Assembly (NCBI GenBank): GCA_043819075.1
Contig: JBDRFE010000060.1
Location: 780 to 64,779, forward strand
Direction of reading: 5' to 3'
DNA: 64,000 bases
Source of the DNA: an archaeon
GTDB taxonomy: Archaea > Iainarchaeota > Iainarchaeia > Iainarchaeales > 1-14-0-10-31-34
Positions within the stretch are counted from its first letter, which is position 1; each line of letters begins with the position of its first letter. Shown here piece by piece: positions 20,862-58,962 of the stretch. The position numbers were made by a program, and so were the translations under genes. The notes under the pieces are model-generated. The model was not told where the DNA came from, made no database searches, and saw only the letters and a program-made list of their open reading frames with translations.

Positions 20862-20962
20862 CGCGATTTCAACCGCTCACTCGGTTGACGCGTGTGCAGA
20901 GCGTAAAGCTCTGCTAGCATGGCTTTATGCCGTGCCTCGTGCTCAAACGGCGAAACGTTTGA
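20862..20962 (+). ncRNA. GC-rich twin-hairpin structured element, copy A (stand-alone candidate sRNA)
   Basis: GCAGAGC-GTAAA-GCTCTGC TA GCATGGC-TTTAT-GCCGTGC, then CAAACG-GCGAAA-CGTTTG; oligo-T runs at 20969-20985. Confidence 0.45.
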
Positions 20963-21009
20963 AAAGCTGTTTTTTAAGTTTTTTGCTTTAACTTTAATTA
21001 GGTGATGCT

Positions 21010-21399
21010 TTGTTTAAGAAAACTTTTTTTTTGACTGCTTTAATTGCTTTAATTCCTTTGGCTTTTGCTGAAGCCGCTTCTCATCCATGGGATTTTTTAA
21101 GGTCGATTTCTTCTATGGCTTATTCTTTTGATTCAGCTACAAGAGTTCTTGTATTTGTTTTTGCCTTGGCTTTATGCTTTATTGCATTGAAAGCTTATCT
21201 GAAAAACAAATCCAGAAGGCTTTTGTTAATCAGCGGAGCATTTTTTTTGTTTGCAGTTAAATGGTTTCTTAAAATCCTTGACTTGTTTTTGAGCCCAGGA
21301 AGCTTTCTTCCTGATGCATCTGAAAACGTCTTTGAGTTATTTATTTTATTGTTTTTGTTTATTGCCTTGTTTTTTAAGCCAAAACAAAAAGGGGTTTAA
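21010..21399 (+). CDS. small membrane protein
   Basis: Signal/TM segments. Confidence 0.3.
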   Translation: MFKKTFFLTALIALIPLAFAEAASHPWDFLRSISSMAYSFDSATRVLVFVFALALCFIALKAYLKNKSRRLLLISGAFFLFAVKWFLKILDLFLSPGSFLPDASENVFELFILLFLFIALFFKPKQKGV

Positions 21400-21405
21400 T
21401 GCATT

Positions 21406-21930
21406 ATGCAGGACTCTGATGCCCTGAACCTTGATTCAAGGAAAAAAATTTATGAGTTAATTGAAGAAAACCCAGGGCTTCATTTCAGGGAAATAGAACG
21501 AAGAACTGGACTTGCTGTCGGCAGCTTGCAGTACCATCTGGAGTTCCTGCAGAAAAGCCATTTAATTAAGTCTTTCAGGCAGGGAAAATTTTTAAGGTAT
21601 TATACTTCAAAAGAATCTGTTGTAGAAGAAAAAGCCGCAATGTCTTTTTTGAGGAAGCCAAGTTCAAGGAAAATAATTATTTTTTTGCTGAACAAAAAAA
21701 AAGCAAACAATTTAGTGATTTCAAAAAAAATTGGATTGTCTCCTTCAACTACTTCATGGCATTTAGAGCAATTGGTTAAAGAAAGCGTTTTAGGCAAAGA
21801 AAAAAGAGGAAGGGAAAGCCTTTTTTTTGTGGTTAACCCAAATGAAGTTGCTTCTTTGTTAGTTGAACACAAAAAGTCTTTTGTTGATGAATTAGTTGAT
21901 AACTTTGTTGAAGTCTGGACAGAAATTTAG
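21406..21930 (+). CDS. tandem winged-helix transcriptional regulator
   Basis: Two wHTH-like segments (REIERRTGLAVGSLQYHLEFL; ISKKIGLSPSTTSWHLEQL). Confidence 0.5.
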   Translation: MQDSDALNLDSRKKIYELIEENPGLHFREIERRTGLAVGSLQYHLEFLQKSHLIKSFRQGKFLRYYTSKESVVEEKAAMSFLRKPSSRKIIIFLLNKKKANNLVISKKIGLSPSTTSWHLEQLVKESVLGKEKRGRESLFFVVNPNEVASLLVEHKKSFVDELVDNFVEVWTEI

Positions 21931-22050
21931 TTACTCTAATACTTCTGATTCAGCGTCTTGTATTTCTTCTGCTTCTTCTCCACAGCACTGTTCTGCTTCA
22001 GCCTGTGAATCATATTCGTTGTTGCAGCCCACACAAACAAATTTTTTCAT
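21931..22050 (-). CDS. 39-aa Cys-containing acidic peptide (MKKFVCVGCNNEYDSQAEAEQCCGEE...)
   Basis: Short ORF below the track cutoff; CxxC...CC. Confidence 0.2.
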   Translation of the reverse strand: MKKFVCVGCNNEYDSQAEAEQCCGEEAEEIQDAESEVLE

Positions 22051-22113
22051 AAAGCCAACCCCCTAAAGCTTTCTGAATAATCTATTTCTTTGCAATAGTT
22101 TTTTTAAAGGCTT

Positions 22114-23040
22114 TTAACTGATTTGAGTGCCTGTTTTTCCTTTTAATGCAGGAACAAGCCTGTCAAGAGAAGTTATTACTGCTTTTTTTCCGCCTGATTC
22201 AATGAATTTAATGCAGGACTCGATTTTTGGCTTCATAGAGCCTTTGCCGAACTCATTTTTTTCAAGCAATTCCTTTAACTCTTTTACTTTTATTTTTCTT
22301 ATTTTTTGCTGGTTTTTTTTGTTGTAGTTCAGGTAAACGAATTCAACGTCAGTTAAAATAATCATTTCTTTTATTCCAAGAGAAACAGCAAGCAATGTTG
22401 ATGCCTTGTCTTTGTCTATTACTGCTTCAATGCCATTCCATTTTTTTCCTTTTTTTGTTACCGGAATTCCTCCTCCCCCACAGCAGACAACAATGCTTCC
22501 TTTTTTCATTAACTCTTTTATTGCTTTTATTTGCAAAATTTTTTTTGGCTCAGGTGAAGCAACAACTTTTCTGTACCCTCTTCCGGAGTCTTCAATGAAA
22601 TCCTTTATTTTTAGTTCAGAAATTTTTTCTTTTGAATAAAACGGCCCAATCGGCTTTGACGGATTCCTAAAAGCAGGGTCTTTTTTGTTTACCTCTATTT
22701 CTGTTACAACAGTTAAAATTTCTTTTTCCGGCAAAAAATTTCTTAAAGATTTCTGGATTAAATAGCCTATCTGTCCTTGAGTCATTGCGTCTTCGACATC
22801 TAAAGGCATTTTTGGGATTTTTGTTTCACAGCTCATCTGGATTTCAAGGTTTCCTACTTGTGGTCCGTTCCCATGCGTTAAAACAACTGTATAATCCTTT
22901 CTGATTAATTCAGCTATTTTTTTTGTTGTTGCATCAACGTTTTTTATTTGTTCTTCAACTTTTCCTTTCTGCCCTTCTTTTATTAAAGCGTTTCCGCCTA
23001 ATGCAACCAGAATTGTTTTCATGAGAAAAGTATTATTCAA
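22114..23040 (-). CDS. arcC: carbamate kinase
   Basis: ILVALGGNAL N-terminus and CCGGGGIPV motif. Confidence 0.85.
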   Translation of the reverse strand: MNNTFLMKTILVALGGNALIKEGQKGKVEEQIKNVDATTKKIAELIRKDYTVVLTHGNGPQVGNLEIQMSCETKIPKMPLDVEDAMTQGQIGYLIQKSLRNFLPEKEILTVVTEIEVNKKDPAFRNPSKPIGPFYSKEKISELKIKDFIEDSGRGYRKVVASPEPKKILQIKAIKELMKKGSIVVCCGGGGIPVTKKGKKWNGIEAVIDKDKASTLLAVSLGIKEMIILTDVEFVYLNYNKKNQQKIRKIKVKELKELLEKNEFGKGSMKPKIESCIKFIESGGKKAVITSLDRLVPALKGKTGTQIS

Positions 23041-23078
23041 GCTTAACTTTTTTATTCTGAACTGCTGTTCTTATTTAA

Positions 23079-24443
23079 ATGACCCAAAAAACAAGGCTTT
23101 TGATTGCAGTTTTTGCTGTAATAATTTTTCTTTTAACATTGTTTATTCCATTGCAGTTAGAGCCATTGCAGAGAGTTGTTTTAGCTGTTTTATTTCTTGC
23201 AATGATTTTATGGTTTTCTGAGTTAGTGCCATTGCATATCACTGCATTTATTGCAGCGTTTTTATTAATTGTTGTCGGAGGCTTTTTTGACAAAACAGTT
23301 TTTACTCCAAAAACAGTTTTTGCCCCTTTTTTTGACCCAATAATAATGCTTTTGCTTGGAGGCTTTGTTCTGGCTTTAGGACTTCAAAAGCATGGCTTGG
23401 ATAAATTAATTTCTTTTGTTTTATTGGAAAAAGTCGGCAGCAAGCCAAAAAAATTTTTATTAGGTTTAATGTGCTTAACAGCATTTTTTTCTTTTTGGAT
23501 GTCAAACACTGCTTCAACTGCAATAATGCTGCCAATTGCAATAGTTGTATTGAATTCAAATAAATTAAAGCCATTGGAATCAAATTTTGGAAAATCTTTG
23601 GTGTTAGGAATTGCTTTTGCTGCAACAATTGGCGGCATTGGAACAGTTATTGGTTCTCCGCCAAATGCAATGGCTTTAAGCTATCTGAATGCAGAAGGAA
23701 TTTCTTTTGGCTTTTCAGACTGGCTGTTATTTGGATTGCCTTTAACATTAATTTTGCTGCCGATTGCATGGTTTGTTTTAATAAAATTTTTTCAGCCGGA
23801 AATTCATGTAATTAAATCAGATTTTTCTTTTTCTCCTTTAACTAAAAACCAAAAACTTGTTTTATTGATTTTTGGGGTAACAGTTTTTTTCTGGCTGACA
23901 ACAGGCTTTCATGGAATGGAAACCTCTGTTGTGGCATTGATTCCAGTAATCTTATTGTATGCTTTTGGCTTGCTTGACACAAAAGACATTAACAAAATAA
24001 GCTGGAGTGCATTAATTTTGTTTGGAGGAGGATTAACTTTAGGCAGTGCAATTCAGGCTGTTGGGTTAGATGAATTGTTTGCCTCTTTTTTGTTCACTTT
24101 TTTGTCTAACCAGCCTGTCCTGCTTGTTTTGGCTGCTTTAGCTGTTTTTGCAGTAATTTTTACTTTGGTTGCAAGCAATACTGCTGCAGCAGCAATCAGC
24201 ATTCCTTTAGTGATTCCTTTGGCTAAAGGATTAGGCATTCCGGTTGAAACAGCTGTAATAGTTATTGCAATAGGAGTTTCACTGGATTTTATTGTGCCAA
24301 TCGGCACTCCGCCAAGCACTATAGCTTATTCTTCTGGTTATATCCGAACTTCTGACATGGCTAAACCAGGAATAATTATTGCTTTAATTGGAATTGCATT
24401 GCTTACCTTGCTGGCGTTTTTCTTATGGCCGTTTCTGGTTTAA
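23079..24443 (+). CDS. DASS/SLC13-family anion:Na+ symporter
   Basis: Two SNT(A)/SPPN hairpin motifs (MSNTASTAIMLPIA; GSPPNAMA); about 12 TM segments. Confidence 0.7.
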   Translation: MTQKTRLLIAVFAVIIFLLTLFIPLQLEPLQRVVLAVLFLAMILWFSELVPLHITAFIAAFLLIVVGGFFDKTVFTPKTVFAPFFDPIIMLLLGGFVLALGLQKHGLDKLISFVLLEKVGSKPKKFLLGLMCLTAFFSFWMSNTASTAIMLPIAIVVLNSNKLKPLESNFGKSLVLGIAFAATIGGIGTVIGSPPNAMALSYLNAEGISFGFSDWLLFGLPLTLILLPIAWFVLIKFFQPEIHVIKSDFSFSPLTKNQKLVLLIFGVTVFFWLTTGFHGMETSVVALIPVILLYAFGLLDTKDINKISWSALILFGGGLTLGSAIQAVGLDELFASFLFTFLSNQPVLLVLAALAVFAVIFTLVASNTAAAAISIPLVIPLAKGLGIPVETAVIVIAIGVSLDFIVPIGTPPSTIAYSSGYIRTSDMAKPGIIIALIGIALLTLLAFFLWPFLV

Positions 24444-24493
24444 CTGACTGTTATTTTAATTTTTTTCTTTCATTAATTCTTTTTGGTGGTTTA

Positions 24494-25000
24494 ATGAGAG
24501 TTGTGTTTGTTATTGCAAAAAACGGTTTTCGTGACGAAGAACTGTTTCACACAAAAGAAGAACTGGAAAAAGAAAAAATTGAAACAGTGATTGCTTCAAC
24601 AGAAAAAGGCTTGTGTCAAGGAAAACTTGGCGGAACAATTGAAGCAGAATTATCAATAGAAGAAATCAGTGTAGAAGAATTTGATGCAATAATTTTTGTT
24701 GGGGGTTCTGGAGCAAAAGAGTATTTTGAAGATGAAATTGCGTTAAATCTTGCAAGAGAATTTAATAAAAAAACAAAGCTTGTTGCTGCAATCTGCATTG
24801 CCCCGTCAATTCTTGCTAACGCTGGCTTGCTGGAAGGAAAAACCGTTACAGCTTTTGCAAGCGAAAAAGAAAACTTAACAGAACAAGGAGCTTTTTTTTC
24901 AGGCGAACCAGTTGAAGTTTCAGGAAACATTGTTACAGCCAATGGCCCGAAAGCCGCAAGAGATTTTGGAAAAAAAATAGCTGAACTGTTGAATGAATAA
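24494..25000 (+). CDS. DJ-1/PfpI family protein
   Basis: AAICIAPSILANAGLL nucleophile-elbow region; start at ATG 24494. Confidence 0.7.
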   Translation: MRVVFVIAKNGFRDEELFHTKEELEKEKIETVIASTEKGLCQGKLGGTIEAELSIEEISVEEFDAIIFVGGSGAKEYFEDEIALNLAREFNKKTKLVAAICIAPSILANAGLLEGKTVTAFASEKENLTEQGAFFSGEPVEVSGNIVTANGPKAARDFGKKIAELLNE

Positions 25001-25016
25001 AAAAAATTTTCAATGA

Positions 25017-25427
25017 TTACTCGCCGATTATTTTAACTAAAACCCTTTTTTTTCTTTGACCGTCAAATTCAGCGTAATAAATTTGTTCCCATGTTCCTAA
25101 ATCAAGTTTTCCGTTTGATACTGCAACAGTTGTTTCCCTTCCCATTATTGTTCGCATTAAATGAGCGTACGCATTATCTTCGCCTGTAAGGTTATGCCTG
25201 TAATCTTTGTCCGGCACTAATTTTTTCAGCCATTCCTTGTAGTCCTCTATTAAGCCTGTTTCAGCGTCATTAATGTACACAGAAGAAGTAATATGCATTG
25301 GATTCACTAAAACAATTCCTTCTTTTATTCTGCTTTTTTTTACAGCTTCTTCTACTTGTTGTGTGATGTTAATGAATTCAATCCTGTTTTTTGTATTAAA
25401 AAACAGGTATTCTGTAAATGTTTTCAT
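25017..25427 (-). CDS. YjbQ/UPF0047 family protein
   Basis: Family-like length and composition. Confidence 0.5.
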
Positions 25428-25431
25428 AAAA

Positions 25432-25503
25432 TGGGAAAGGGGAGAATCGGACTCCCGACCTTTCGATTATCAGTCGAACGCTCTGCCACTAAGCCACTCT
25501 CCC
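25432..25503 (-). tRNA. tRNA-Ile (anticodon GAT)
   Basis: Acceptor GGGAGAG/CTTTCCC (one G.U), anticodon stem TTCGA/TCGAA, loop CTGATAA, T-arm GGGAG-TCCGATT-CTCCC. Confidence 0.7.
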
Positions 25504-25759
25504 AACACCTTTTCCAAAAGGTGCAACTTAAACCAAAAAGGTTTAAGTGCACAACAAAATAAAAATTTTGTTGCTGTAACAAAATGCACGGCATTCGCTT
25601 TTTGCTCAGCCGGGCTGTAATGGCCAAAAAAACCAAAACAAGTAGTAATTATTTCTTTAAGTAAATAATTAAAGCTTTTGTGGAAGAATCCGTGAATCAC
25701 TTCTGTAAAACATTAAGATGTTTCGTTGCTAAAATAATTTAAATGCTGTGGTTAAGAAG

Positions 25760-25935
25760 AGGTTGTACTAGCACGGGTTTATCCCATGCACAGTCACATC
25801 CGAGCGAAATCGCGAATAGCCCAGAAGAGATCCCAACAACAGTTTCGGCTGTTGGGTACGAGGCACGACGTGAAGTCGTGCTAGCACAGCTTTATGCTGT
25901 GCACTGGTGTCAAGCTGACAGCGGCAGTTGTGAAA
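25760..25935. ncRNA. GC-rich twin-hairpin structured element, copy B (on the 3' flank of tRNA-Gln)
   Basis: GCACGGG-TTTAT-CCCATGC ... CAACAG-TTTCGG-CTGTTG ... GCACGAC-GTGAA-GTCGTGC TA GCACAGC-TTTAT-GCTGTGC, then the ACTGGTGTCAAGCTGACAGCGGCAG motif. Confidence 0.45.
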
Positions 25936-26008
25936 TAGCCCCGAGGAGATTCGAACTCCTGTCAACGGGTTCAAAGCCCGTCATCCTTGGCCACTAGACT
26001 ACGGGGCT
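25936..26008 (-). tRNA. tRNA-Gln (anticodon TTG)
   Basis: Acceptor AGCCCCG/CGGGGCT, anticodon stem ACGGG/CCCGT, loop CTTTGAA, T-arm AGGAG-TTCGAAT-CTCCT. Confidence 0.8.
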
Positions 26009-26364
26009 GACAAGGATATAACTAATAAAAAAAACAATTAAATATTAATGAGCTATTGAATAAAATGAAATAACTCGATATATTTGCACACCAACTGAGC
26101 GAGACGGTTGTTGAACAGCTGTTTTTAAGCTTTTTCTATTATCATCTTTTTTTTTGTTCATTTTTTTTGTTTTATTTTCTTTTTTTTGTGTTTTCCATTA
26201 AAAAAAACTGTTCGGAATACCAACTTTTTTTACTGAAACGGTTTGCTTATGAATGGCTCAAACTTTTTAAATAGAACAGGTGTTTGTATTAATGCCTTTT
26301 GTTAGTTAAAAAAAATGCCTTTTGTTAGCTAAAAAAAGACAAGGAATCGGTTAGGGGTGATTAA

Positions 26365-26736
26365 GTGAGTTTAATTTCATTGACTTTTGGCAACAAAAAA
26401 AATAGTTTCTCTGTTTCTTCTGCAATCCAGATTGTAAGGCCTGCTGACTGCCTTGTATCAAAGGCTGGCATTGAAAATACTGTTAGAGTGGTTAAATCAT
26501 GCTTTTTTTTCAAGCAAAAAGAACCGTATATTGTTGCAAACATTGTTTCAGGAATTGTATCAGAGAAAATGTGCGGGACAGTGAATGGAAGAAATTTTGA
26601 AATAGTTGAACTGGAATCAAAATACGGTGACGCTGGAATAGCAAAAAAAGGAATGACTATTGGCTTGATGGTTAAAGGACTTGAAAACGAAGTCATTGAA
26701 TCAGGTTCAACAATTTCTTTTGAAGAAAAAAAATAA
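26365..26736 (+). CDS. hypothetical small protein (beta-barrel-like)
   Basis: Plus-strand ORF preferred over the antisense 26361..26741 ORF on composition. Confidence 0.3.
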   Translation: MSLISLTFGNKKNSFSVSSAIQIVRPADCLVSKAGIENTVRVVKSCFFFKQKEPYIVANIVSGIVSEKMCGTVNGRNFEIVELESKYGDAGIAKKGMTIGLMVKGLENEVIESGSTISFEEKK

Positions 26737-26741
26737 TTCAT

Positions 26742-28469: not shown

Positions 28470-28580
28470 TCAGTATTTAGATGGTTTTTCTTGTATTTAT
28501 TTATTGCTTTTTGCAGTTTAATGCATTGCTTTAAAATATTGTTTTGTTTTTTGTTTTAATGTGGTTTTAAAGGCGATTGA

Positions 28581-28772: not shown

Positions 28773-28838
28773 GAATTAATTAACACTGGCAGTCTACTGT
28801 CTCAAAGCTTTTTTATACGCTAAAAACAAAATCTTATT

Positions 28839-30011: not shown

Positions 30012-30044
30012 AAATTTGAAAAGGCGCAAAAGGAATGTTTTAGT

Positions 30045-31082: not shown

Positions 31083-31090
31083 TTTTTCAC

Positions 31091-36737: not shown

Positions 36738-36744
36738 TTTTTTT

Positions 36745-46924: not shown

Positions 46925-47070
46925 CAGCTCGACTGAACGAAGTGAATAACCGCTTCCGTGCGGTTGTGACGGCGCACGGCGTGAAGCCGTGCTAGCGCAA
47001 CTTTATGTTGTGCACCGTTGCTCACGGACGGAACCGTGACGTGGCAGCCGAGCGAAATCGGCTAACTGCA
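46925..47070 (+). ncRNA. GC-rich twin-hairpin structured element, copy C (stand-alone, oligo-T at 47081-47093)
   Basis: TTCAG-CTCGA-CTGAA; GCACGGC-GTGAA-GCCGTGC TA GCGCAAC-TTTAT-GTTGTGC; CACGG-ACGGAA-CCGTG; GCCGA-GCGAAA-TCGGC. Confidence 0.5.
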
Positions 47071-48044
47071 GTTTGTTCCTCTGCTTTTTTCTGTTGTGAA
47101 ATCTTTTGTCCCTAACTCAAAATTTTTTTGCTGAAAAACTTTTTTCCAAGCCTGCTTGCATTCAAATGCATATAAGCAATCAGAACAATAATGCCTTATA
47201 GTGCATTCAGTTATTGTTGTAGGAGAAACTGTTGTGTCATCAATAATTATTTCTTTTTTTGTGCTGTCAATCCTGCAGTCGTAAGCAGGCGTGCCTAAAA
47301 CATTTACTGTGAATTCCTGTTCAATGAAACCAAAATCCAGTCCAGTAATTTTTGCTTTAACAAAGTATTCTCCGGGAGAATCAAATTCAATTTCTGTTTC
47401 AAGTGTTTTTGTTTCTTTTGGTTCAATTCTTGTCCTTGTGCTAACAGCTTTTTTTATTTGCTCTTGTTTTATTGTTCCGTTGTCGTTGAATGCAATTGCT
47501 GCAACAGCTTCAATTACTGCAAAGCTTTCAGTTGTATTCCCTTTGTTGGTTACTTCAGCTGAAATTCTTAGTTTATCTGAATCAAAATAAAAGTTGTTGT
47601 TGTAGTTTAACCCATCTGATTGCACTTGCGCCGGAACACCTCCAACGTAAATGTCGCAGAAATAGGTTCCTTTCACGTTCTCGCATCTGGTGCTTGTTAT
47701 TGGATTAATTGTTTTGTTGAATTTAATGAAATCTTTTGTCCATTCACTTCTTGAATCGCATTTCTCGTTTTCTGCACAGCAAAATTCATATGAATTGCAT
47801 TCAAATTCTATTACAGTATTATTTGATTCAAAATCCTGTTTTGACAGTGAAATTCCTTTTTCAAGCTTTAAATCGTATTCAGAGTTATAAATTCCTAAAT
47901 TTTTTTTTTTGAGAGCTCTATTTGCCCGTTTAATTTTTCTACAATGCCTTGTTTGGGGAATGCAGCGGGAAAAAAAATGTTTGAAATAAAAAAAAACAAA
48001 TACAATAGTACAATAAAGCTTACAACTATTTTGAATGGATTCAT
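47062..48044 (-). pseudogene. secreted Cys-rich protein gene split by an A11 tract (signal-peptide ORF 47900-48044 plus body 47062-47900)
   Basis: ATG at 48044 encodes a hydrophobic signal peptide and stops just after T11 (plus 47900-47910); the body frame runs from the tract with no ATG; A12 would fuse them. Confidence 0.45.
47900..47910. repeat. T11/A11 homopolymer at frameshift site
   Basis: Counted directly. Confidence 0.8.
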
Positions 48045-50187: not shown

Positions 50188-50258
50188 TATAGAATTAGTC
50201 TTCTGAAATTTAAATGCTTTTAGTTTAAAAACATTATTTAACCATTTTATTATGTTTT

Positions 50259-50459
50259 GGGACCGTGGTGTAGCCTGGTCTAGCATTGCGGCTTTGGGCC
50301 ACAACTGTTTCGTCAGTTGAGTGCGATGCACGACTTTCGCGGTTTAGCCCGCGAGAGACTATGCACTACTTTCAGTAGAGCTAGCTTGCTTCGCTTTATT
50401 CTGATAAAATAATTGATGCAAATAAGCCGTTGACCCCGGTTCAAATCCGGGCGGTCTCA
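50259..50459 (+). tRNA. tRNA-Pro (anticodon TGG) with 126-nt intron after position 37 (50299..50424)
   Basis: Exon 1 GGGACCG..GCGGC-TTTGGG; exon 2 A-GCCGT-TGAC-CCCGG-TTCAAAT-CCGGG-CGGTCTC-A; acceptor and anticodon stems pair across the intron. Confidence 0.7.
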
Positions 50460-50668
50460 TAACATTTTTCTTAAATTAATCTCGCATTTGCTTTCTTCTT
50501 CTCTGCCTTCTTTCGTCACTTGTTTTTGTATTCTGTTTTTCTTGTTTCAAGAACTTTTTTTGTTTTAATGCTTTGTTTGCAGTCCTTTCCTTTGATTCTT
50601 TTGAACGCGAAAACATTCCTGAATTCATGTTATACTATTGTTTTATGATATTAATTAGCTTTTGTTTT

Positions 50669-51274: not shown

Positions 51275-51370
51275 AATACAATAACGCTTAACCTTTATTT
51301 AAAACTTTATTTTTTCATTTAAATCAGGATTCCTGCAGTAAAGTATAAAAATTCTGGTTCCCTTGTTTTA

Positions 51371-53034: not shown

Positions 53035-54126
53035 CTGTAAATAATTTCAATTACCGGCTCAATTATTTTTTTCGGGTGGCCTTCAAGCTCTAATGCTTCA
53101 ATTATTTCTTCTTTAGTGTATTTTTTCACTGCAACATCCAGTGACGAAACAAGCTTTTTCACTTTGTTTTTTTCTTCTTTTGTCAGGCCGTTAAAAACGC
53201 TTTCATCAACTTGTTTTGCCCCCATTTTTTTTGCTAGGCCTTTGGTGAAAAAACCCGTAATGTTTTTCAGCTGTCCTGCCACGCTCTGGTTTTCTTCTAC
53301 GCTTTTCTCTTTTTGCGGCATTGCTTTAATGTTAACAGGAATTATTTTTTCCAGTTCTTTCATTCTTTCTTCCGGTGCCAGATAAATTTTTTGTTCCGGG
53401 GTTTCTGTTTCAAATGATTCTATTACCTGGAACATGGATTTTTTTTCTTTGGGTTTTTCGCTTTCAGTTGCCTTTGTTTTTTCTTTCAGAGGTTTTTCCA
53501 GGACAAACTCTTTCAGCATTTCGCTTTCAATGTCTTTTTTTTTTTTCAGGCAGCGGAGTTTTTATTATTTTTTCAGCTGACTTTTTTTCAAGGATTATTT
53601 TTTCTGAAACCCCTTTTTCAAAAAGTTTTTTTTCAGGAGCACTGATTTCATTTATTTTTTTGTAGCCTGAAGCATGTTCTTTTAATTCTTCCAGAATCTG
53701 TTTTTTTTGTTCTGTTTCTTTTTCTTCATGGTGCAGGGGCTTTTCCTCTAATTTAATGTTCAGTGAACTGATTTTGTTTTCTTTTTTTTGTTGTTCTGTT
53801 TTGTGCCAGTGCCCTTCCCTGAAAGGAATCTTTTTGTCTTCGATTAGTTCAGGCTGTATTTCTTTTTTTTCCTCTTTTTTATTCCATAAATGCTCTGATT
53901 CTTTTTCTTTTATTATTAAGCCGTCAATGTCTTCTTTTTCAAGGTCTTTTCCTTTTATACTGGAGACTTCTTCCCTGAGCTTGTTCATTAAAATTTTTTG
54001 TTTATTGTTTTTTTCTTCTTTCACAACAGGTTTTTTCTGCTGCTTTATTTTTTCTGCTTCTTCTTTTCTTTCTTTTAAGTCTTTTTTTGATTTGACTAAA
54101 GCATTTATTTCTTCTATTGACGGCAT
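53031..54126 (-). pseudogene. Lys/Glu-rich low-complexity protein gene split by an A12 tract (ORFs 53527..54126 and 53031..53519)
   Basis: The upstream ORF ends PEKKKRH* across T12 (plus 53535-53546); A11 would read through into MLKEFVLEK... Confidence 0.35.
53535..53546. repeat. T12/A12 homopolymer at frameshift site
   Basis: Counted directly. Confidence 0.8.
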
Positions 54127-54173
54127 TCAATCACACTAATAATAAATACTGCCATATATAAAAGTTTGTCAGT

Positions 54174-55637
54174 TTAATACGATTTTGCGATATAAACGAT
54201 TTTTTCTGCTTTTTTTCCGCAGGCAATGCAGTTTCCTTTTGGATTTTCTTTTTCTCCAAGCCTTGTCCCTCTAATGCTTGCATTCAATTCTTTTTCAATT
54301 TTTTCTGCGCAAGAATAGCCTTCCATTGACACTGAACAGAACCCTGTTTTGATTATTTTGCCTTTCTCTAATTCTTTTTTTGCTTTTTCAATTGAGTCAG
54401 CTGAAACAATTGCTTCACTGAACTCTTTTTCAGCTTTTAACTGAAGTTCTTTCAGCTGTTTTTCGCCTTCTTTTAAAATCAAAGAGCTTATTCTTGCAAG
54501 GTTTTCTTTTGTTTTTTTTCCTGAATGCCTTGCAAAAACTGTTGCTTTTTTTTCAGTTAACTCTTTTTCCCCTAATTCAATGCGGAATGGAACTCCTTTC
54601 ATTTCCCAGAAATAAAATTTTTCTCCGATTGTTTTGTCAGTTAAATCAGCTTCAGCCCTTAATTTTTTTTCAGTTAATTCTTTTCTTATTTTTTCTGTTT
54701 CTTTTAATATTTTTTCCTTGTTTTTGTCGTTATAAATCGGCACAATCACTGCTTGCAACGGTGCCGCAGTGAATGGAAGCACTAATCCTTTGTTGTCGCC
54801 GTGAACTGAAATCATTGCGGCAAAAATCCTGCTTACTGCCGGGCCATAGCATGTTGTCCAGCAGTAATTTTCTTTTCCTTTTTCGTCAGTGAATTTTACA
54901 TTAAATGCTTTTGTAAAATTTTGCGATATAACATGAGTTGAAGGCAGCTGCAGTATTTTTCCGTCTGGCATTAAAGTGTCTGCTGCAAAAGTTGATTCTG
55001 CTCCCGGAAACTTGTCCCATTGCGGTCTCTCAAAAAAAATAAACGGAATCCCTAATTTTTCCAGCAGCACTTCTTTTGTTGTCTGCATGTCTTCTTCTGC
55101 CTGCAAAAAAGCGTTTTCTCTTGAATCAAATGCATTATGTGTTTCAATCCAGTAAAATTCCCTGCTTCTGATGAAAGGCTTTGTTGCTTTTGTTTCATGC
55201 CTGAAAACCTGTGCTCTTTGATATGTTTTGAATGGAAGGTCTTTGTATGACCTAATCCATAAAGAAAACATCTGGTAGAAAGCTGTTTCTGATGTCGGCC
55301 TTAAAGCAAGTTTTTCCTCTAATTTTTCTCCTGCACCAGTTTCTGTTACCCAAAACACTTCTGGTGCAAAGCCTTTTACATGCTCTTTTTCCATTAAAAA
55401 ATTTTTTTCCGGGATTACAACAGGATACCAGTATGGTTTGTGGCCTTTTAATTGAAGTGTTTCTTCAAAAAAGTCATACATTTTTTCCATTGCAATAACA
55501 GACCATGGCTGGAAAATCAGAAAGCCTTTTACATTATATCTTAAGTCCCCTAATTCAGCTTTTTTTACTATTTCAGAGTACCATTCAGAGAAATTGTTTT
55601 TTTTGTCAAAGTCAAATGTGACTTTTTCTTTTGCCAT
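54174..55637 (-). CDS. proS: prolyl-tRNA synthetase (archaeal/eukaryal type)
   Basis: Class II ProRS core with C-terminal zinc-binding extension; about 487 aa. Confidence 0.85.
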   Translation of the reverse strand: MAKEKVTFDFDKKNNFSEWYSEIVKKAELGDLRYNVKGFLIFQPWSVIAMEKMYDFFEETLQLKGHKPYWYPVVIPEKNFLMEKEHVKGFAPEVFWVTETGAGEKLEEKLALRPTSETAFYQMFSLWIRSYKDLPFKTYQRAQVFRHETKATKPFIRSREFYWIETHNAFDSRENAFLQAEEDMQTTKEVLLEKLGIPFIFFERPQWDKFPGAESTFAADTLMPDGKILQLPSTHVISQNFTKAFNVKFTDEKGKENYCWTTCYGPAVSRIFAAMISVHGDNKGLVLPFTAAPLQAVIVPIYNDKNKEKILKETEKIRKELTEKKLRAEADLTDKTIGEKFYFWEMKGVPFRIELGEKELTEKKATVFARHSGKKTKENLARISSLILKEGEKQLKELQLKAEKEFSEAIVSADSIEKAKKELEKGKIIKTGFCSVSMEGYSCAEKIEKELNASIRGTRLGEKENPKGNCIACGKKAEKIVYIAKSY

Positions 55638-55673
55638 AGGAAAAAACTTCTTTCAATCTCTTTAAAACCTTTT

Positions 55674-56045
55674 TTACAGCCTTCTCAGTCTTCTGAAAAA
55701 CTTTCTTATCTCATGTTTTCTTATTACAGGCTTGACTGGTTTTCCGCCTATTGTTCCTGTTTTGGTTGTCTTGTCAATTTTTCCGCCGACATAAGTTTCC
55801 TGTATTTCCATTATTCTTGGCTTGCCTTCCATTGAACTGTCCTGTGCATTTATTGTTCTGCTGACAGGGTTTCCTTTTGAATCCCATTCAGTGACTTCAT
55901 GGCGTGTTCCGATATAATTTCCTGTTTTTTTTGTTTTTCTCCTGAACTTATCCTGTTCAGGGCTTTTTCCTACAATATGGTTTGTTTGTCCAAGCGACTG
56001 TTTTGCTTTCTTCATTTCTTCTGGCGTTAATTTTCTTACAGGCAT
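55674..56045 (-). CDS. hypothetical basic protein
   Basis: Start at ATG 56045; the longer track ORF extends into the GC-rich element and is unlikely. Confidence 0.3.
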   Translation of the reverse strand: MPVRKLTPEEMKKAKQSLGQTNHIVGKSPEQDKFRRKTKKTGNYIGTRHEVTEWDSKGNPVSRTINAQDSSMEGKPRIMEIQETYVGGKIDKTTKTGTIGGKPVKPVIRKHEIRKFFRRLRRL

Positions 56046-56140
56046 TTTAATCAATAAAAATACTGAACCAGAATTAATAAGGCTTTCTTTAAACTGCCGT
56101 TCGCCGATTCTGCTCGGTGGCAATGAGGTACAACACAAGG

Positions 56141-56283
56141 TCTTGTTAGCACGGTTTTATGCCGCAACCGTCACGCTCGGTTGGTGTGCGCGCACGGGAT
56201 AAACCCGTGCTAGCGCAACTTTATGTTGCGCACCGTTACACTCGCACGGAAGCGAGTCGGTGCTCGCGGGCGAAACCGCGAAA
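56141..56283. ncRNA. GC-rich twin-hairpin structured element, copy D (abuts the tRNA-Pro(GGG) 3' end)
   Basis: ACGGTT-TTATGCCGC-AACCGT; GCACGGG-ATAAA-CCCGTGC TA GCGCAAC-TTTAT-GTTGCGC; CTCGC-ACGGAA-GCGAG; CGCGG-GCGAAA-CCGCG. Confidence 0.5.
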
Positions 56284-56357
56284 TGGGACCGCCGAGATTT
56301 GAACTCGAGTTACAAGCTCCCCGAGCTTGAGTGATAACCAGACTACACTACGGCCCC
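56284..56357 (-). tRNA. tRNA-Pro (anticodon GGG)
   Basis: Acceptor GGGGCCG/CGGTCCC (one G.U), anticodon stem CAAGC/GCTTG, loop TCGGGGA, T-arm TCGAG-TTCAAAT-CTCGG. Confidence 0.75.
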
Positions 56358-56363
56358 TTAATC

Positions 56364-57479
56364 TTAAATTAATTTAAAGTAGAATTCCTCTAATTTTAAT
56401 GCCCGTTTTTCCCTTGAATTCTCTTCAGCTTTTTTAACTGCATTAACTGAAAGCCTGTTATACAATGTTTTGTCTGAAAAAAGTTTTTTTATTTTTTCTG
56501 CTGCTTCTCTGGCATTAAACGGTTCAAACAAGAAACCATTAACCTCCTCTTTTATTGTTTCTGGTATAGCCATTTTGTTTGCTCCAATGCAGGGCATTCC
56601 TGTCGCCATTGCCTCTGCAATTGTCAATCCTTGTGTTTCCATTGTTGCTGCAGTTATAAAAACATTTGATTCAGCGACTTTTTCAGCTAATTCTTTTCCT
56701 TTTAATGCTCCTGTAAAAAAAACCCTTTTTTCAAGGTTTTTTTCTTTTGCTTTTTCCTTTAATTTTTCTAATGCAGGGCCTGAGCCGATTATTGAAAGCA
56801 AAGCAGTTTCTTCAAGCAGTTCCAGTGTGTCAATCAGCACTTCAATGTTTTTTTCAAATGAAATTCTTCCGAAGTAAACCAGTTTTTTTTGTTTTAAGTC
56901 TTTATTGCATTTCACTGAATTAAATAATTTAAAGTTTATTCCGTTTGGCAAAACTTTCACGTTTTTTATTCCGTTTTCTTCTAATTCTTTTTTTATTTTT
57001 TCTGTTGGCGTGGTAGTTAAATCACATTTGTTGTAAAACAGTTTTGAATAAAACCAGACTCCTTTTTTTGCTATCTGTGATTCTTTTAGGAAGGGAATTG
57101 GCAGGTACATCATGAAGTCAGGCAGGTAAGTGTGGTATGTCCCGATTTTTTTTTTCTTTAATTTTTTTGCTAAATTTAATCCAATCCAGCCCACTGAAAA
57201 AGGCGTGTGGCAGTGAATTATATCTGGATTGAATTCTTTTAGTTTTTTTTCTGCTTCAAGTGAAATAATTGAACTAATCCTGTATTCTTTGTATGTTGGC
57301 AGTGAAATGCTTGGAATCCAGAAAACATCAAATTTTGTTTTTACTTCTTCCCTTGTTTTTGGCGCAAAAACCATTATTTTGTGGCCTTTTTTTTCTAATT
57401 CTTCTGCAAAATTGTCTATGGAAATGACTACTCCGTTTATCTGCGGCCAGTAACTGTCAGAAAAAAAAGCTATTCTCAT
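56364..57479 (-). CDS. GT4-family glycosyltransferase
   Basis: GT-B fold with RIAFFSDSYWPQINGV N-terminus. Confidence 0.75.
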   Translation of the reverse strand: MRIAFFSDSYWPQINGVVISIDNFAEELEKKGHKIMVFAPKTREEVKTKFDVFWIPSISLPTYKEYRISSIISLEAEKKLKEFNPDIIHCHTPFSVGWIGLNLAKKLKKKKIGTYHTYLPDFMMYLPIPFLKESQIAKKGVWFYSKLFYNKCDLTTTPTEKIKKELEENGIKNVKVLPNGINFKLFNSVKCNKDLKQKKLVYFGRISFEKNIEVLIDTLELLEETALLSIIGSGPALEKLKEKAKEKNLEKRVFFTGALKGKELAEKVAESNVFITAATMETQGLTIAEAMATGMPCIGANKMAIPETIKEEVNGFLFEPFNAREAAEKIKKLFSDKTLYNRLSVNAVKKAEENSREKRALKLEEFYFKLI

Positions 57480-57522
57480 GTTATCAGATAAATTGTTCTT
57501 GGTTTAAGTTCTTTAATTCTTT

Positions 57523-58227
57523 CTATCGAATGTTTTCGTATTTTCTGCTTGCCTTGTTGAAGAAATAAAAGTTTACTGCGTTCTTTAAGTGAAAGAAAAT
57601 AAAATAAAAGTAGCCCCATGCCTTTACTCTTCTTGCTGAAACCTCTACAATGCTTTTTTTGTTGTATTTTATTTTGCCAATTTTTTTAAGGTGCCTGAAT
57701 AAATCCAGGTCTTCGCAGGTTACATAGCTTGAATCAAAGCCGTTTATTTTCCTGAAGGATTCTTTTCTTACTGCAATGTTTGAGCCAATCGGGTTATGCA
57801 TTCCGATTGCGGCCATTAAACTCATGAACAACGGCATTACTGTGCTGCTAATTTTTTTCTCTGATGAGCTTACATCAGAAAAAAACACGCTTCCGTACTG
57901 GCCTATTACTTCTGGGTTTTTTTCAAAAAAATTAACGTTTTCCTGCACCCAGTTTTCTGCTACAATTGCATCAGCGTCTGTGAATAAAAAGTATTTTCCT
58001 TCAGCAATTTTTGCTCCTGCGTTTCTTTCAGCTGCAATTCTTCTTATTTTTTCTTTTATTGTTTTTGCTCCAAGGCTTTTTGCTATTTCAACTGTTTTGT
58101 CTTCACTGTTTCCGTCTGCTACAATTACTTCAAAGCTTCCTGAAAACTTTTGTTTTTGGATTGATTTAACGCAGTCGCCAATCCTTTTCTCTTCGTTTAA
58201 AGTGCAGACGATTACTGAGATATCCAT
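57523..58227 (-). CDS. GT2-family glycosyltransferase (dolichyl-phosphate glycosyltransferase-like)
   Basis: ISVIVCTLNEE...DADAIV motifs. Confidence 0.75.
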   Translation of the reverse strand: MDISVIVCTLNEEKRIGDCVKSIQKQKFSGSFEVIVADGNSEDKTVEIAKSLGAKTIKEKIRRIAAERNAGAKIAEGKYFLFTDADAIVAENWVQENVNFFEKNPEVIGQYGSVFFSDVSSSEKKISSTVMPLFMSLMAAIGMHNPIGSNIAVRKESFRKINGFDSSYVTCEDLDLFRHLKKIGKIKYNKKSIVEVSARRVKAWGYFYFIFFHLKNAVNFYFFNKASRKYENIR

Positions 58228-58334
58228 GAATAACCGATAAAAGAAAGCTTTTGAAAAATAAAAGGTTTTTGGAGGGAATACAGTTTCTGGCGGTTAAACC
58301 AACAAATTTTAATTAGTTTAACATAATTTATTAT

Positions 58335-58826
58335 TTGATGAATAAAGAGCAGTTTGTCGAAGGAAAGCTTGAAGGATGTGAAAAAGAATTTTGTTCACAA
58401 TCCTGTTGTGATGACGATAAAGTTGAAGAATGGACAAACGAGTATTTTGCTTTTCATGAAAGAATGAAAGAGCATTTGCTTTCTGCTGGAATTAAAATTC
58501 ATTTTGCCGGAGACAGAGTAAGATTCACTAATTGTTCTGATGGCAGGGAATGCAAGTTTTTAAAGTATTCTTTAAACAAAGATATTGATCCAAGGCCAAT
58601 TGACTGCAAAATATTTCCTTTTACAGTTGACTGGGAATCAATTGATTTTAATAAAAAAATAGCAAAACTGGATTATTGGGACAAAAGCTGCCCTTTAGTG
58701 AAAAGCAACAACATTCCAAAAGAGTTCCTGAAAGAAGTTGAAGGCATAATAAAAAGAGATTTTGCAGTTCTGTTTTATGGGGCAAGATTTGAAGTTAAGT
58801 TTCCTGCAGACTTAAACAAAAAATAA
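58335..58826 (+). CDS. Cys-rich hypothetical protein
   Basis: C-x4-C-x3-CC plus further Cys residues. Confidence 0.3.
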   Translation: MMNKEQFVEGKLEGCEKEFCSQSCCDDDKVEEWTNEYFAFHERMKEHLLSAGIKIHFAGDRVRFTNCSDGRECKFLKYSLNKDIDPRPIDCKIFPFTVDWESIDFNKKIAKLDYWDKSCPLVKSNNIPKEFLKEVEGIIKRDFAVLFYGARFEVKFPADLNKK

Positions 58827-58840
58827 AAGAAATAAAACTT

Positions 58841-58962
58841 TTTCAGCTCGGCTGAGCAGAGCGAATGCCAAACCAGTTTCGGCTGGTTGCAGCGACGCAC
58901 AGCTTTTAGCTGTGCTAGCACGACCTTGTGTCGTGCGTTTGATACAACTTTGGAAAGTTGTT
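58841..58962. ncRNA. GC-rich twin-hairpin structured element, copy E (abuts the tRNA-Trp 3' end; hairpin order swapped)
   Basis: TCAGC-TCG-GCTGA; CCAG-TTTCGG-CTGG; GCACAGC-TTTTA-GCTGTGC TA GCACGAC-CTTGT-GTCGTGC; CAACTTT-GGA-AAGTTG. Confidence 0.45.

Follow-up and report, generated by a model that had tools for sequence, protein, structure and literature searches.

A modular, dyad-symmetric hairpin repeat family frequent at tRNA genes in Iainarchaeia

Introduction

A 64,000-nt stretch of DNA from an Iainarchaeota archaeon (assembly GCA_043819075.1, JBDRFE010000060.1, positions 780 to 64,779 of the forward strand), referred to here as the window, has a GC content of 34% and carries five short GC-rich loci, copies A to E, in which two hairpins stand side by side on stems that differ from copy to copy. 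These loci raise the question of whether such pairing marks a new RNA gene, as a first-pass annotation of the window had proposed, or a repeated DNA element that keeps its structure for other reasons.

Results

The five loci rank among the main non-tRNA GC-rich islands of the window, as annotated in the first pass, and all of them (5/5) hold two perfect 7-bp hairpins with 5-nt loops and a TA junction; ACGGAA-loop and GCGAAA-loop hairpins were also confirmed downstream (Table 1). The stem and loop sequences had been listed correctly, except that the order in copy E was reversed: on the plus strand the GCACAGC/TTTTA hairpin comes first and the GCACGAC/CTTGT hairpin second. Under a strict definition, the window contains 19 hairpins vs 0.26 in block shuffles, and the copies have RNA folding z-scores of -4 to -5, with equally good folding for both strands. 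The loci are genuine copies of a single repeat family that keeps its pairing despite differing stems. A comparison with Rfam gave no match even at E<=1, in agreement with the earlier failure to place them among CRISPR, C/D, H/ACA, SRP or RNase P RNA. Three features had escaped the annotation, namely the tRNA adjacency of copies B, D and E, the degenerate copies and the loop partners.

Table 1. Copies, modules and fragments of the repeat in the window (covariance-model scores in bits on the plus and minus strands)
Feature	Position	Strand	Score +	Score -	Remarks
Copy A	20862..20969	.	76.3	69.4	stand-alone
A, truncated module	20862-20870				cgcgatttc
A, hairpin	20871-20886				aaccg-ctcact-cggtt
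A, twin hairpins	20896-20914 and 20917-20935				TA between; linker next
A, hairpin	20944-20961				caaacg-GCGAAA-cgtttg; tail aaaagctg after
Copy B	25726..25935	.	73.6	72.0	3' trailer of minus-strand tRNA-Gln (25936-26008)
B, decayed unit	25726-25818				degenerate copy; 23 bits
B, hairpin	25837-25854				TTTCGG loop
B, twin hairpins	25863-25881 and 25884-25902				
B, end module	25903-25929				actggtgtcaagctgacagcggcagtt
Copy C	46925..47065	.	98.4	91.7	stand-alone, 141 nt
C, terminal motif	46925-46935				CAGCTCGACTG
C, hairpin	46948-46965				TTCCGT loop
C, twin hairpins	46974-46992 and 46995-47013				
C, hairpin	47022-47039				ACGGAA loop
C, hairpin	47046-47063				GCGAAA loop
Copy D	56093..56283	.	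65.3	82.7	3' trailer of minus-strand tRNA-Pro(GGG) (56284-56357)
D, outer module	56093-56127				CAG..CTG-like
D, decayed twin	56128-56165				
D, hairpin	56166-56182				aaccg-tcacgct-cggtt
D, intact twin	56192-56210 and 56213-56231				
D, hairpin	56240-56257				ACGGAA loop
D, hairpin	56264-56281				GCGAAA loop
Copy E	58845..58962	.	72.9	74.2	3' trailer of minus-strand intron-containing tRNA (58963-59090)
E, terminal motif	58845-58870				CAGCTCGGCTG plus agcagagcgaatgcc
E, hairpin	58871-58888				TTTCGG loop
E, twin hairpins	58897-58915 and 58918-58936				
E, AT-rich hairpin	58944-58961				
Degenerate intron copy	50297..50420	+			126-nt intron of tRNA-Pro(UGG) (50258-50460); 38.9 and 36.3 bits on the two strands
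Intron copy, hairpin	50302-50319				TTTCGT loop; also hairpin cgcgg-tttagc-ccgcg
Intron copy, model match	50334-50416				degenerate copy
Intron copy, decayed twin	50363-50385				around GCTAGC
tRNA-Thr 5' leader	5440..5493	+			tRNA 5494-5569; copy B end module cactggtgtaaactgacagcggcagtt
tRNA-Ile 5' leader	25505..25625	-			tRNA 25431-25504; outer module CAGCCCGGCTGAGCAAAAAGCGAATGCC first, then AT-rich hairpins
Isolated module fragment	26086..26125	.			gcacaccaactgagcgagacggttg; reverse complement of copy D module

A complete unit comprises about four hairpins arranged with dyad symmetry, reading [TTYCGN loop]-8 nt-[ATAAA]-TA-[TTTAT]-8 nt-[NCGRAA loop]. In each half-unit of ~50 nt, an 8-nt linker connects a 7-bp hairpin, whose loop is of the TTTAT type, to a 5-7-bp hairpin with an NCGRAA loop, and two such halves meet head to head at a GC-TA-GC junction. 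An outer CAGCNNGRCTG motif in inverted orientation often caps the array; element L015 has the inverted terminal motifs CAGCCGGACTG ... CAGACCGGCTG, and the termini are missing from many copies. Among 37 non-redundant elements, TTYCGN-loop hairpins occur solely on the left (-26) and NCGRAA-loop hairpins solely on the right (+48), and each of the GNRA-like loops on the plus strand is matched by a complementary TTYCGN loop across the unit. Covariance model R1 finds each copy on either strand, at scores that hardly differ. Arrays range from ~100 to >350 nt with highly variable module composition, and loops and linkers are better conserved than stems. By inspection, G.U pairing between linkers is possible in several sense-strand copies, at a level that is not statistically significant.

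The compensatory stem changes described in the first pass were borne out by a covariation check of 21 twin hairpins, in which 99.3% of cells are paired and 9 of the 14 pairs change on both sides, a pairing score reached by 0 of 500 shuffles; structures shifted by 1-3 columns are just 15-45% paired, and in the four-hairpin unit 20 of the 26 pairs show compensatory changes. The pattern used to scan sequence collections placed no constraint on inner stem positions, and these are complementary in all true matches. The free stem positions comprise 343 Watson-Crick pairs, 3 G.T and 4 A.C, so that G.U amounts to ~1% in element stems vs 7.8% in the tRNA stems of the same loci (27 G.U among 348 pairs; Fisher p = 8e-5). 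Additionally, only 21 stems account for 74 perfect hairpins, with the top 9 stems making up 81% and being common to several genomes, and stem and loop combinations reappear in both orientations. Between the window and two other MAGs, linker and hairpin modules of 24-25 nt match at 100% identity, and further loci match at 96-98%.

A scan of 596 Gb of genomes with the twin-hairpin pattern recovered 16 loci, all confined to five Iainarchaeia ('Diapherotrites'-type) MAGs, and metagenomes added 30 further loci, 4 of which resemble chance matches. The single viral match was rejected as chance, lying in a coding region with non-complementary inner stem positions. This repeat family has not been described before and belongs to a small group of DPANN archaea.

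Three copies, B, D and E, adjoin the 3' ends of minus-strand tRNA genes (copy D at a gap of 2 nt) and fill the trailers of these genes, and relatives of the element occupy tRNA 5' leaders, 3' trailers and introns as well as the region upstream of RNase P RNA. Overall, 17 of the 37 elements lie inside or <=60 nt from a tRNA or RNase P gene vs 2.1% of sequence expected, and for the window alone, where 3 of the 5 copies are at tRNAs, p = 9e-5. The commonest gap between element and gene, 24-27 nt, equals one hairpin module; orientation relative to the tRNA is mixed, and introns of different tRNAs have sequences in common. No T-run separates the tRNAs from the trailer copies, which are therefore transcribed. 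Where the element occupies a leader, its TTTAT loop is placed ~34 nt before the tRNA. None of the 14 stand-alone copies is in a divergent spacer, all being downstream of at least one gene, and the neighbouring genes are ordinary housekeeping genes. Copy C and the L003 element start where the upstream gene ends, at its stop codon, and gene 47062-47676 takes its TAG stop codon (minus strand, 47062-47064) from copy C itself. Two observations on location speak against a selfish reading. The element in the folD-glyA spacer keeps its position in two genomes that share 78% protein identity in GlyA, and hairpin feet 0-3 nt from mature tRNA ends in several tRNAs and species, including the hairpin caaacg-GCGAAA-cgttt that occurs at Val, Ser and Glu tRNAs of four species, each time ending at -1, could reflect a processing role.

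Comparison of orthologous sites revealed gain and loss. Copy C is a clean 141-nt insertion with empty orthologous sites in L001 and L002, and the site of copy A, which is enclosed by a T tract (T9 at 20853-20861, T6 at 20970-20975), is unoccupied in three relatives (L050, L051, L052). In the tRNA-Pro and tRNA-Trp-type trailers, L001 has decayed element sequence and L002 no element; the trailer orthologous to copy D keeps a remnant and that orthologous to copy E a decayed copy (33 bits) in L001, and no strict hairpins occur in L001 and L002 (21 kb each). Within copy B, the decayed-unit hairpin at 25771-25789 has a C.A mismatch on the plus strand and G.U on the minus strand. Modules also recur out of context: 28 nt of copy A (20870-20897) recur without a change in a tRNA-Asn intron of a different species (L008), where the adjoining stem is entirely different; the tRNA-Thr leader module, abutting the tRNA 5' end, is 93.5% identical over 31 nt to 25899-25929; and the isolated fragment is 92% identical over 25 nt to 56165-56189 of copy D. 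Copy E begins with the same outer module as the tRNA-Ile leader, and the orthologous leader in L050 opens with CAGTCCGGCT. No target-site duplication was visible at the two filled-vs-empty sites (copies A and C), and no mobilising enzyme or transposase was found among the flanking genes; a tblastn search of 459 kb with an IS608 TnpA sequence, a weak test, gave no match.

Discussion

The first-pass annotation took the paired substitutions to indicate selection on RNA secondary structure, not just DNA repetition. This inference fails because the unit is dyad-symmetric with equal scores on both strands, because G.U is nearly missing in comparison with tRNA stems of the same loci, because copies A and C were inserted at sites whose orthologues are empty, and because the orthologous tRNA trailers of relatives hold decayed copies or none. 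Moreover, the stems are a small set of stem and loop cassettes reused across genomes, so that much of the apparent covariation is cassette exchange.

The element behaves as repeated DNA: it is present at some orthologous sites and missing from others, its copies swap whole stem and loop cassettes and flanking modules, copies free of constraint decay through uncompensated substitutions, and survivors sit where harm is small, in removed parts of stable-RNA transcripts and in spacers downstream of at least one gene. Lying mainly in discarded parts of tRNA transcripts, strand-symmetric and prone to come and go, it resembles selfish palindromic DNA more than a new functional RNA gene. We therefore lean towards reading the loci as a non-coding palindromic repeat, modular and restricted to this lineage, that is akin in type to REP/BIME elements or mitochondrial GC clusters and is tolerated where it is taken out by RNA processing. 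As part of a tRNA unit it would be transcribed as a passenger and then cut away by RNase P, RNase Z or splicing endonuclease. Perfect pairing on both strands may mean that propagation involves recognition of a folded single strand, be it ssDNA, a cruciform or RNA of either orientation, or might arise from template switching that copies one arm from the other, and the cross-species conservation of loops and linkers could reflect recognition by a putative conserved factor. The identity of 24-25-nt modules between MAGs requires strong constraint and, to that extent, counts against a selfish repeat, as do the failure to find a mobilising enzyme or a target-site duplication and, at a level short of significance, the G.U pairing of linkers.

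Functional RNA modules are an unlikely alternative that nevertheless deserves weight. Arrays made within pre-tRNA transcripts or from their own promoters would be released by RNase P, RNase Z or splicing endonuclease as compact multi-hairpin RNAs, possibly circular when derived from introns, and would act either in trans, e.g., to bind proteins as a scaffold or decoy, or in cis, where they would help the neighbouring tRNA to be processed or to fold, with dyad symmetry providing the same RNA architecture in either DNA orientation. The hairpins abutting mature tRNA ends, the transcribed trailer copies, the strong pairing statistics with loops and linkers outdoing stems in conservation, the folD-glyA element, and the plus-strand T-runs that follow stand-alone copies A and C, whose G.U pairs are on that strand, fit such RNAs, whereas equal scores on both strands, mixed orientation, depleted G.U, the wide variation in modules and array length and the missing Rfam match do not; furthermore, orthologous tRNAs in relatives manage with lost or decayed copies, and copy A lies directly after a T9 terminator, leaving no room for a promoter. 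It is improbable that palindromic repeats were co-opted as orientation-independent 3'-end structures that shield upstream RNAs from 3' exonucleases or curb read-through in a compact genome. Bacterial REP elements have been reported in such roles, symmetry would serve both directions, and the stand-alone copies do lie downstream of genes, with copy C and the L003 element beginning at a stop codon, but leader and intron copies cannot be 3'-end structures, archaeal termination depends on oligo-T and the T-runs beside A and E are independent of the hairpins, and a simple stability element would need no conservation of loops and linkers. We give very little credence to double-stranded DNA sites, in which a dimeric protein, e.g., a regulator of stable-RNA genes, would bind the symmetric duplex unit, or outward-facing TTTAT loops would be weak TATA boxes. 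The two-fold symmetry of the conserved positions is perfect, and the spacing of the TTTAT loop in leaders is close to that of TATA boxes in element-free tRNA genes of the window (about -36, own reading); yet duplex binding needs no complementarity of arms that are complementary in 99% of cells, the tRNA-side TTTAT loop is missing in 2 of the 6 leader copies, leader copies (e.g., in L009) have separate AT-rich TATA-like boxes upstream of them, and trailer and intron copies would fire antisense transcription into the tRNA.

The selfish palindromic repeat that we favour has several known counterparts. REP/BIME (REPIN) elements are short imperfect extragenic palindromes in inverted pairs with defined linkers, mobilised by RAYT transposases, in which the hairpin is kept while sequence varies and target-site duplication is not expected. 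The present elements share with them the inverted pairs and defined linkers, the extragenic and often transcribed location, the multiple copies and the lineage specificity, but are archaeal, GC-rich in an AT-rich genome and built of at least four hairpins per unit, cluster at tRNA leaders, trailers and introns, and are devoid of a GTAG-type 5' tetranucleotide; in a weak test, the sampled DNA yielded no RAYT or Y1 transposase. The first-pass annotation had itself raised a MITE-like selfish repeat, and insertion polymorphism and inverted terminal motifs agree with this in small, non-coding, multi-copy elements, whereas the missing target-site duplication and the many copies necessarily transcribed in pre-tRNAs do not; unlike MITEs, with their deleted transposon interior, the elements have no related full-length IS that was found, often lack termini and have an interior that is a mosaic of exchangeable hairpin cassettes.

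Mitochondrial GC clusters (yeast GC42, Neurospora PstI palindromes, Allomyces double-hairpin elements) are likewise GC-rich palindromic hairpins of AT-rich, reduced genomes with presence/absence polymorphism. Going by the reference list of a citing paper, Yin et al. 1981 reportedly dealt with GC-rich palindromes flanking tRNA genes in Neurospora and Paquin et al. 2000 with double-hairpin elements in Allomyces. The present elements differ in lying on a cellular archaeal chromosome, with another consensus and a strictly dyad-symmetric four-hairpin architecture, in conserving loops and not stems, whereas changes in GC42 concentrate in loops, and in the lack of an AG-type target duplication at the two filled-vs-empty sites. 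Integron attC sites conserve folded single-strand DNA structure, not sequence, and paired changes can therefore arise without RNA function; the present elements resemble attC in this respect, but not in its use of one strand, its asymmetry, its place beside gene cassettes or its IntI integrase. Finally, C/D box sRNAs occur in archaeal tRNA introns or fused to tRNAs, and the present elements are similarly extra RNA in tRNA transcription units that is removed by tRNA processing enzymes; unlike these sRNAs, they have neither C/D or H/ACA boxes nor an Rfam match, and their modules turn up in both orientations, in leaders and trailers as well as far from any tRNA.

Architecture of the repeat unit

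The elements of the window are a lineage-restricted, modular, dyad-symmetric hairpin repeat that has been inserted and lost at orthologous sites, has exchanged cassettes and is enriched in the parts of stable RNAs that are removed. At all five loci (copies A to E) the twin hairpin reported in the first-pass annotation, consisting of two 7-bp stems with 5-nt loops joined by TA, was recovered with the stems and loops listed there, and these loci, along with the tRNAs, are the main GC-rich islands of a window whose GC content is ~34%. The arrangement it gave holds for copies A to D; its sole error concerns copy E, where the order of the two hairpins is reversed on the plus strand. Strictly defined hairpins numbered 19 in the window, compared with 0.26 in block shuffles.

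The unit exceeds the twin hairpin and shows dyad symmetry, running from a hairpin with a TTYCGN loop through an 8-nt linker to a 7-bp hairpin with the loop ATAAA or a variant, the TA joint, a 7-bp hairpin with the loop TTTAT or a variant, a second 8-nt linker and a hairpin with an NCGRAA loop. Among 37 elements, TTYCGN hairpins were found on the left side only, starting at -26, and NCGRAA hairpins on the right side only, at +48, while the right-linker types are, by inspection, reverse complements of the left linkers; this makes the unit an inverted dimer of ~50-nt half-units, which also occur singly or decayed (e.g., 25768-25817). Inverted CAGCNNGRCTG motifs cap the outer ends of some arrays (C and E in the window, L014 and L015 among the loci of other genomes) and are absent from many copies. 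R1, a covariance model built from the four-hairpin alignment, matched every copy on both strands with near-equal scores (98.4/91.7 bits for C, 73.6/72.0 for B and 74.2/72.9 for E), and folding was equally good on either strand. In one tRNA-Val(GAC) trailer the array is unusually long, exceeding 350 nt and comprising at least eight hairpin modules, among them repeated gtgctatctaaagatagcac hairpins that are absent from the window.

Pairing and cassette exchange

Paired changes in the stems, on which the first-pass annotation had based its claim of selected secondary structure, were borne out by a covariation test on 21 twin hairpins (window copies together with those of other genomes): the share of paired cells was 99.3%, 9 of 14 pairs changed on both sides, and the observed pairing statistics were matched by none of 500 shuffles, with pairing falling to 15-45% when the structures were slid out of register. 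For eleven longer units, RNAalifold predicted four hairpins with compensatory changes at 20 of 26 pairs. Free stem positions comprised 343 Watson-Crick pairs, 3 G.T and 4 A.C (wobble ~1%), and G.U pairs were rarer in the elements than in tRNA stems of the same loci (27/348, or 7.8%; p = 8e-5); wobble pairs in the tRNA-linked copies, with 3 sense and 2 antisense cases, are uninformative for strand assignment. Loop-loop (kissing) pairing of ATAAA with TTTAT was ruled out since left and right loops do not covary, the combinations found including GTGAA/TTTAT, ATAAA/TGAAA and ACAAG/TTTAT. A closing helix between the two linkers, giving a three-way junction, was not predicted by RNAalifold; it could form in some copies, and the centroid structure of copy C is compatible with it.

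The 74 perfect hairpins draw on 21 stems, the top nine of which make up 81% and recur across genomes, and certain combinations of stem and loop recur in both orientations (e.g., GCACGAC with CTTGT/ACAAG). Copy A shares 28 identical nt with the tRNA-Asn intron of another species, and the next stem is wholly different. Given these recurring cassettes and this mosaic, the apparent compensation is at least partly an exchange of whole cassettes, and covariation tests can mistake palindromic elements for novel ncRNAs.

Gain and loss at orthologous sites

In two relatives, L001 and L002, the spacers orthologous to that of copy C (46925-47065) are empty, and against them C stands out as a clean insertion of 141 nt. 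It replaced the end of the upstream gene 47062-47676 (minus strand) and gave it its TAG stop codon, the protein ending in ...TNCS* as opposed to ...TNCTE* in L001 and ...TNCK* in L002; the elements can thus change gene ends. Copy A was inserted into a T tract at a site that is empty in three relatives. No target-site duplication was seen at the filled versus empty sites of C and A, the boundary of A being ambiguous in its T tract. The trailers orthologous to those of tRNA-Pro(GGG) and of the Trp-type tRNA, occupied in the window by D and E, hold decayed copies in L001 and none in L002, and D itself has a decayed twin next to an intact one. The tRNA-Gln/Ile region of a further relative (L050), orthologous to the region of B, contains no GC-rich copy. 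At all compared sites orthologous to the five window elements, the element was absent, decayed or newly inserted.

Distribution and association with tRNA genes

A pattern constrained at just the closing pairs, the TA and a single TTTAT loop was run against 596 Gb of sequence, each species being represented by one genome; it returned 16 loci, all within five metagenome-assembled genomes (MAGs) of the Iainarchaeia/Diapherotrites type, and a metagenome scan returned 30 further loci. A viral origin was rejected: the lone match on a viral contig was a chance one, non-complementary and within a coding region. The window codes for proteins of archaeal type (GatE, bearing a GAD domain; an ATP-dependent DNA ligase; class II aminoacyl-tRNA synthetases), and the closest relatives of its ProRS, at ~80% identity, are in some cases labeled Candidatus Diapherotrites (DPANN archaea). 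An organellar origin, or sequence homology to the mitochondrial hairpin repeats, was rejected on the grounds that GatE and the archaeal DNA ligase mark the host as an archaeal chromosome and that the consensus occurs only in Iainarchaeia MAGs.

What the earlier description of the loci lacked was their tRNA context. Copies B, D and E start 0-3 nt past the 3' ends of minus-strand tRNAs, namely tRNA-Gln, tRNA-Pro(GGG) and the intron-containing tRNA, respectively, so that three of the five window elements adjoin a tRNA (p = 9e-5). Overall, 17 of 37 non-redundant elements lie inside or within 60 nt of a tRNA or RNase P gene, where 2.1% would be expected, and the usual gap is 24-27 nt, exactly one hairpin module. 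Further module pieces were found in the leaders of tRNA-Thr and tRNA-Ile and in the intron of tRNA-Pro(UGG), so modules occur beside or inside every one of the six tRNA genes of the window. None of the 14 stand-alone copies is in a divergent spacer (p ~0.02); each is downstream of one or more genes, and the genes flanking them are housekeeping genes. No split or permuted tRNA halves were seen beside A and C.

Coordinates and loci of tRNA genes, hairpin elements and neighboring features (L numbers, loci in other genomes or metagenomes)
Feature	Location	Strand	Remarks
tRNA-Thr	window 5494-5569	+	
tRNA-Ile	window 25431-25504	-	
tRNA-Gln	window 25936-26008	-	
tRNA-Pro(UGG)	window 50258-50460	+	126-nt intron
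tRNA-Pro(GGG)	window 56284-56357	-	
Intron-containing tRNA	window 58963-59090	-	Rfam match; missed by ARAGORN without intron settings
Twin hairpins in tRNA 5' leaders	L007, L010, L014, L009		Val (L007), Ser (L010), Glu (L014)
Twin hairpins in tRNA 3' trailers	L006, L016, L031-L033		Leu (L006), Pro (L016)
Twin hairpins in tRNA introns	L008, L011, L017		Asn (L008), Thr (L011)
Twin hairpins upstream of RNase P RNA	L004		51 nt upstream
Long tRNA-Val(GAC) trailer array	L005 665-1044; also L047		
tRNA-Asn(GUU) with element in intron	L050 6929-7096		94-nt intron
Gaps orthologous to this tRNA-Asn	window 16621-16674; L051 169-221		52 nt
AT-rich module family	window 58995-59050, 25505-25580; L009 7840-7930; L015 6760-6870; L050 16390-16700		
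Small transcription unit	window 20745-20861; L050 11180-11320; L051 4215-4360; L052 4225-4370		
ORF overlapping copy D	window 55674-56138	-	154 aa, TTG start; overlap 56093-56138

With intron settings, ARAGORN called the intron-containing tRNA Gly(CCC) and its L001 orthologue Trp(CCA); the anticodon loop, CTCCAGA, would fit Trp. Such calls are unreliable in this clade because the introns are long, and several of the tRNAs described here were detected only under intron-tolerant settings, the elements lengthening tRNA introns and leaders enough for tRNA finders to miss genes. In L050, a whole tRNA-Asn(GUU) gene, its intron carrying an element, lies between two class II synthetase genes, and the orthologous gaps in the window and in L051 are without a tRNA gene. 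A second, AT-rich family of hairpin modules (e.g., AAAACTTTTTnnnAAAAAGTTTT and CCTTTTTAGAAAAAAGG) is common to introns of different tRNAs and to tRNA-Ile leaders; it extends across genomes, which means that pre-tRNAs of this clade carry no fewer than two repeat families in the segments that are discarded.

Repeated DNA or functional RNA

The inability to match the elements to CRISPR, C/D, H/ACA, SRP or RNase P RNA was upheld and extends to ribozymes and riboswitches: no Rfam 15 family overlapped them even at E<=1, and matches at the gathering score were limited to tRNAs and the single RNase P RNA at L004. A CRISPR array was likewise rejected, the hairpins being inverted rather than direct, 2 nt apart and without spacers.

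The hairpins and the kept pairing on which the elements had been read as an RNA gene are real, and that reading is supported in part; an RNA function is at most putative, several of the results favoring palindromic DNA repeats instead. Neither a better strand nor G.U pairing as in the RNAs of the host, both expected of a strand-specific ncRNA, was found, and a conventional RNA of this kind is disfavored because of the strand symmetry, the scarce wobble pairs, the cassettes, the gain and loss and the stand-alone placement. Copies of the repeat would persist where processing by RNase P, RNase Z or the splicing endonuclease cuts them out, and their propagation would yield no target-site duplication. 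The perfect pairing on both strands would reflect one of two things, either that a folded single strand is recognized as the repeat propagates or that template switching copies one arm from the other. The elements could nevertheless have a functional RNA role. In its favor, 24-25-nt modules of the window recur at 100% identity in two other MAGs and at 96-98% in further loci, though window proteins are only 60-80% identical to those of relatives. The element in the folD-glyA spacer is kept in two genomes whose GlyA is 78% identical, with the same loops and with different stems and flanking modules. Hairpin feet fall within 0-3 nt of mature tRNA ends, in four different tRNAs the same GCGAAA hairpin reaches to position -1, and transcription must cover the copies in leaders, trailers and introns, since promoters lie upstream and no T-run separates the tRNAs from the trailer copies. 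Taken together, these points therefore argue that something sequence-specific recognizes the loops and linkers. Their very strong conservation across species points to a putative recognizing factor, which is worth finding and for which a mobilizing enzyme acting on folded DNA and an RNA-binding or RNA-processing factor are the candidates.

We consider it rather doubtful, if worth stating, that the modules constitute a novel type of orientation-independent element tied to tRNA biology, in the form of either a structure-specific mobile element or functional multi-hairpin RNAs. In the mobile form, a putative enzyme could insert the element at the feet of folded hairpins and spread it via tRNA leaders, trailers and introns, and such insertion would account for its lying 0-3 nt from tRNA ends and from other modules. 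In the RNA form, biogenesis via RNase P, RNase Z and the splicing endonuclease could yield RNAs that accumulate in stable, perhaps circular form with a lineage-specific protein bound to them.

Comparison with known palindromic families

Palindromic repeat families are well known from bacteria (REP/BIME) and from fungal mitochondria (GC clusters, and PstI palindromes beside tRNA genes), and the archaeal elements have their closest analogues in these two groups, bacterial REP/BIME and fungal mitochondrial GC-rich palindromes. Like REP/BIME, the archaeal elements are extragenic and consist of imperfect 20-40-nt palindromes, paired in inverted orientation by fixed linkers, but their hairpin feet are without the GTAG-like 5' tetranucleotide. 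A tblastn search of 459 kb of incomplete genomes with an IS608 TnpA sequence, a weak test for a RAYT gene, gave no match to a Y1 transposase, and no transposase or cognate IS was found beside the copies, the flanking genes being housekeeping ones. The elements resemble MITEs in being short, non-coding and multi-copy and in showing insertion polymorphism; the inverted CAGCNNGRCTG at the ends of some arrays recalls terminal inverted repeats but is missing from many, and with neither a target-site duplication nor a cognate IS found the likeness to MITEs is only partial.

With mitochondrial GC clusters and double-hairpin elements the archaeal family shares the character of GC-rich mobile hairpins in an AT-rich genome, some of them flanking tRNA genes. 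It differs from the fungal mitochondrial palindromes in its archaeal host, its consensus and its strictly symmetric four-hairpin unit, in conserving loops rather than stems, and in occupying tRNA leaders, trailers and introns. Yeast mitochondria contain mobile hairpin GC clusters that have merged and been shuffled (PMC4478555), and, as cited in that paper, GC-rich palindromes flank mitochondrial tRNA genes in Neurospora (Yin et al., 1981) and double-hairpin elements occur in Allomyces (Paquin et al., 2000). In the literature on Diapherotrites/Forterrea transposons, archaeal tRNA leader/trailer repeats and tRNA-intron MITEs, we found no earlier description of the elements, nor any such palindromic family in DPANN archaea or in tRNA leaders, trailers or introns. 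If confirmed, this would be a case of convergence, in which AT-rich reduced genomes repeatedly gain hairpin repeats high in GC, and these find shelter in the segments of tRNA transcripts that are discarded.

Neighboring features

The outer modules of copy D are overlapped by an ORF that has no Pfam match; the assigned start is probably too far upstream, or else the ORF is spurious. In four genomes, the FBA gene is separated from the next gene by a small conserved transcription unit, which has a BRE/TATA-like box (aaaaagcctttataaa) followed by ~75 nt that end in a hairpin (GGAGGAAATTT...AAATTTTTCCTCC) and a T-run, directly behind which copy A sits in the window. This unit has no Rfam match; it may represent a small RNA that has escaped annotation, or else a regulatory leader.
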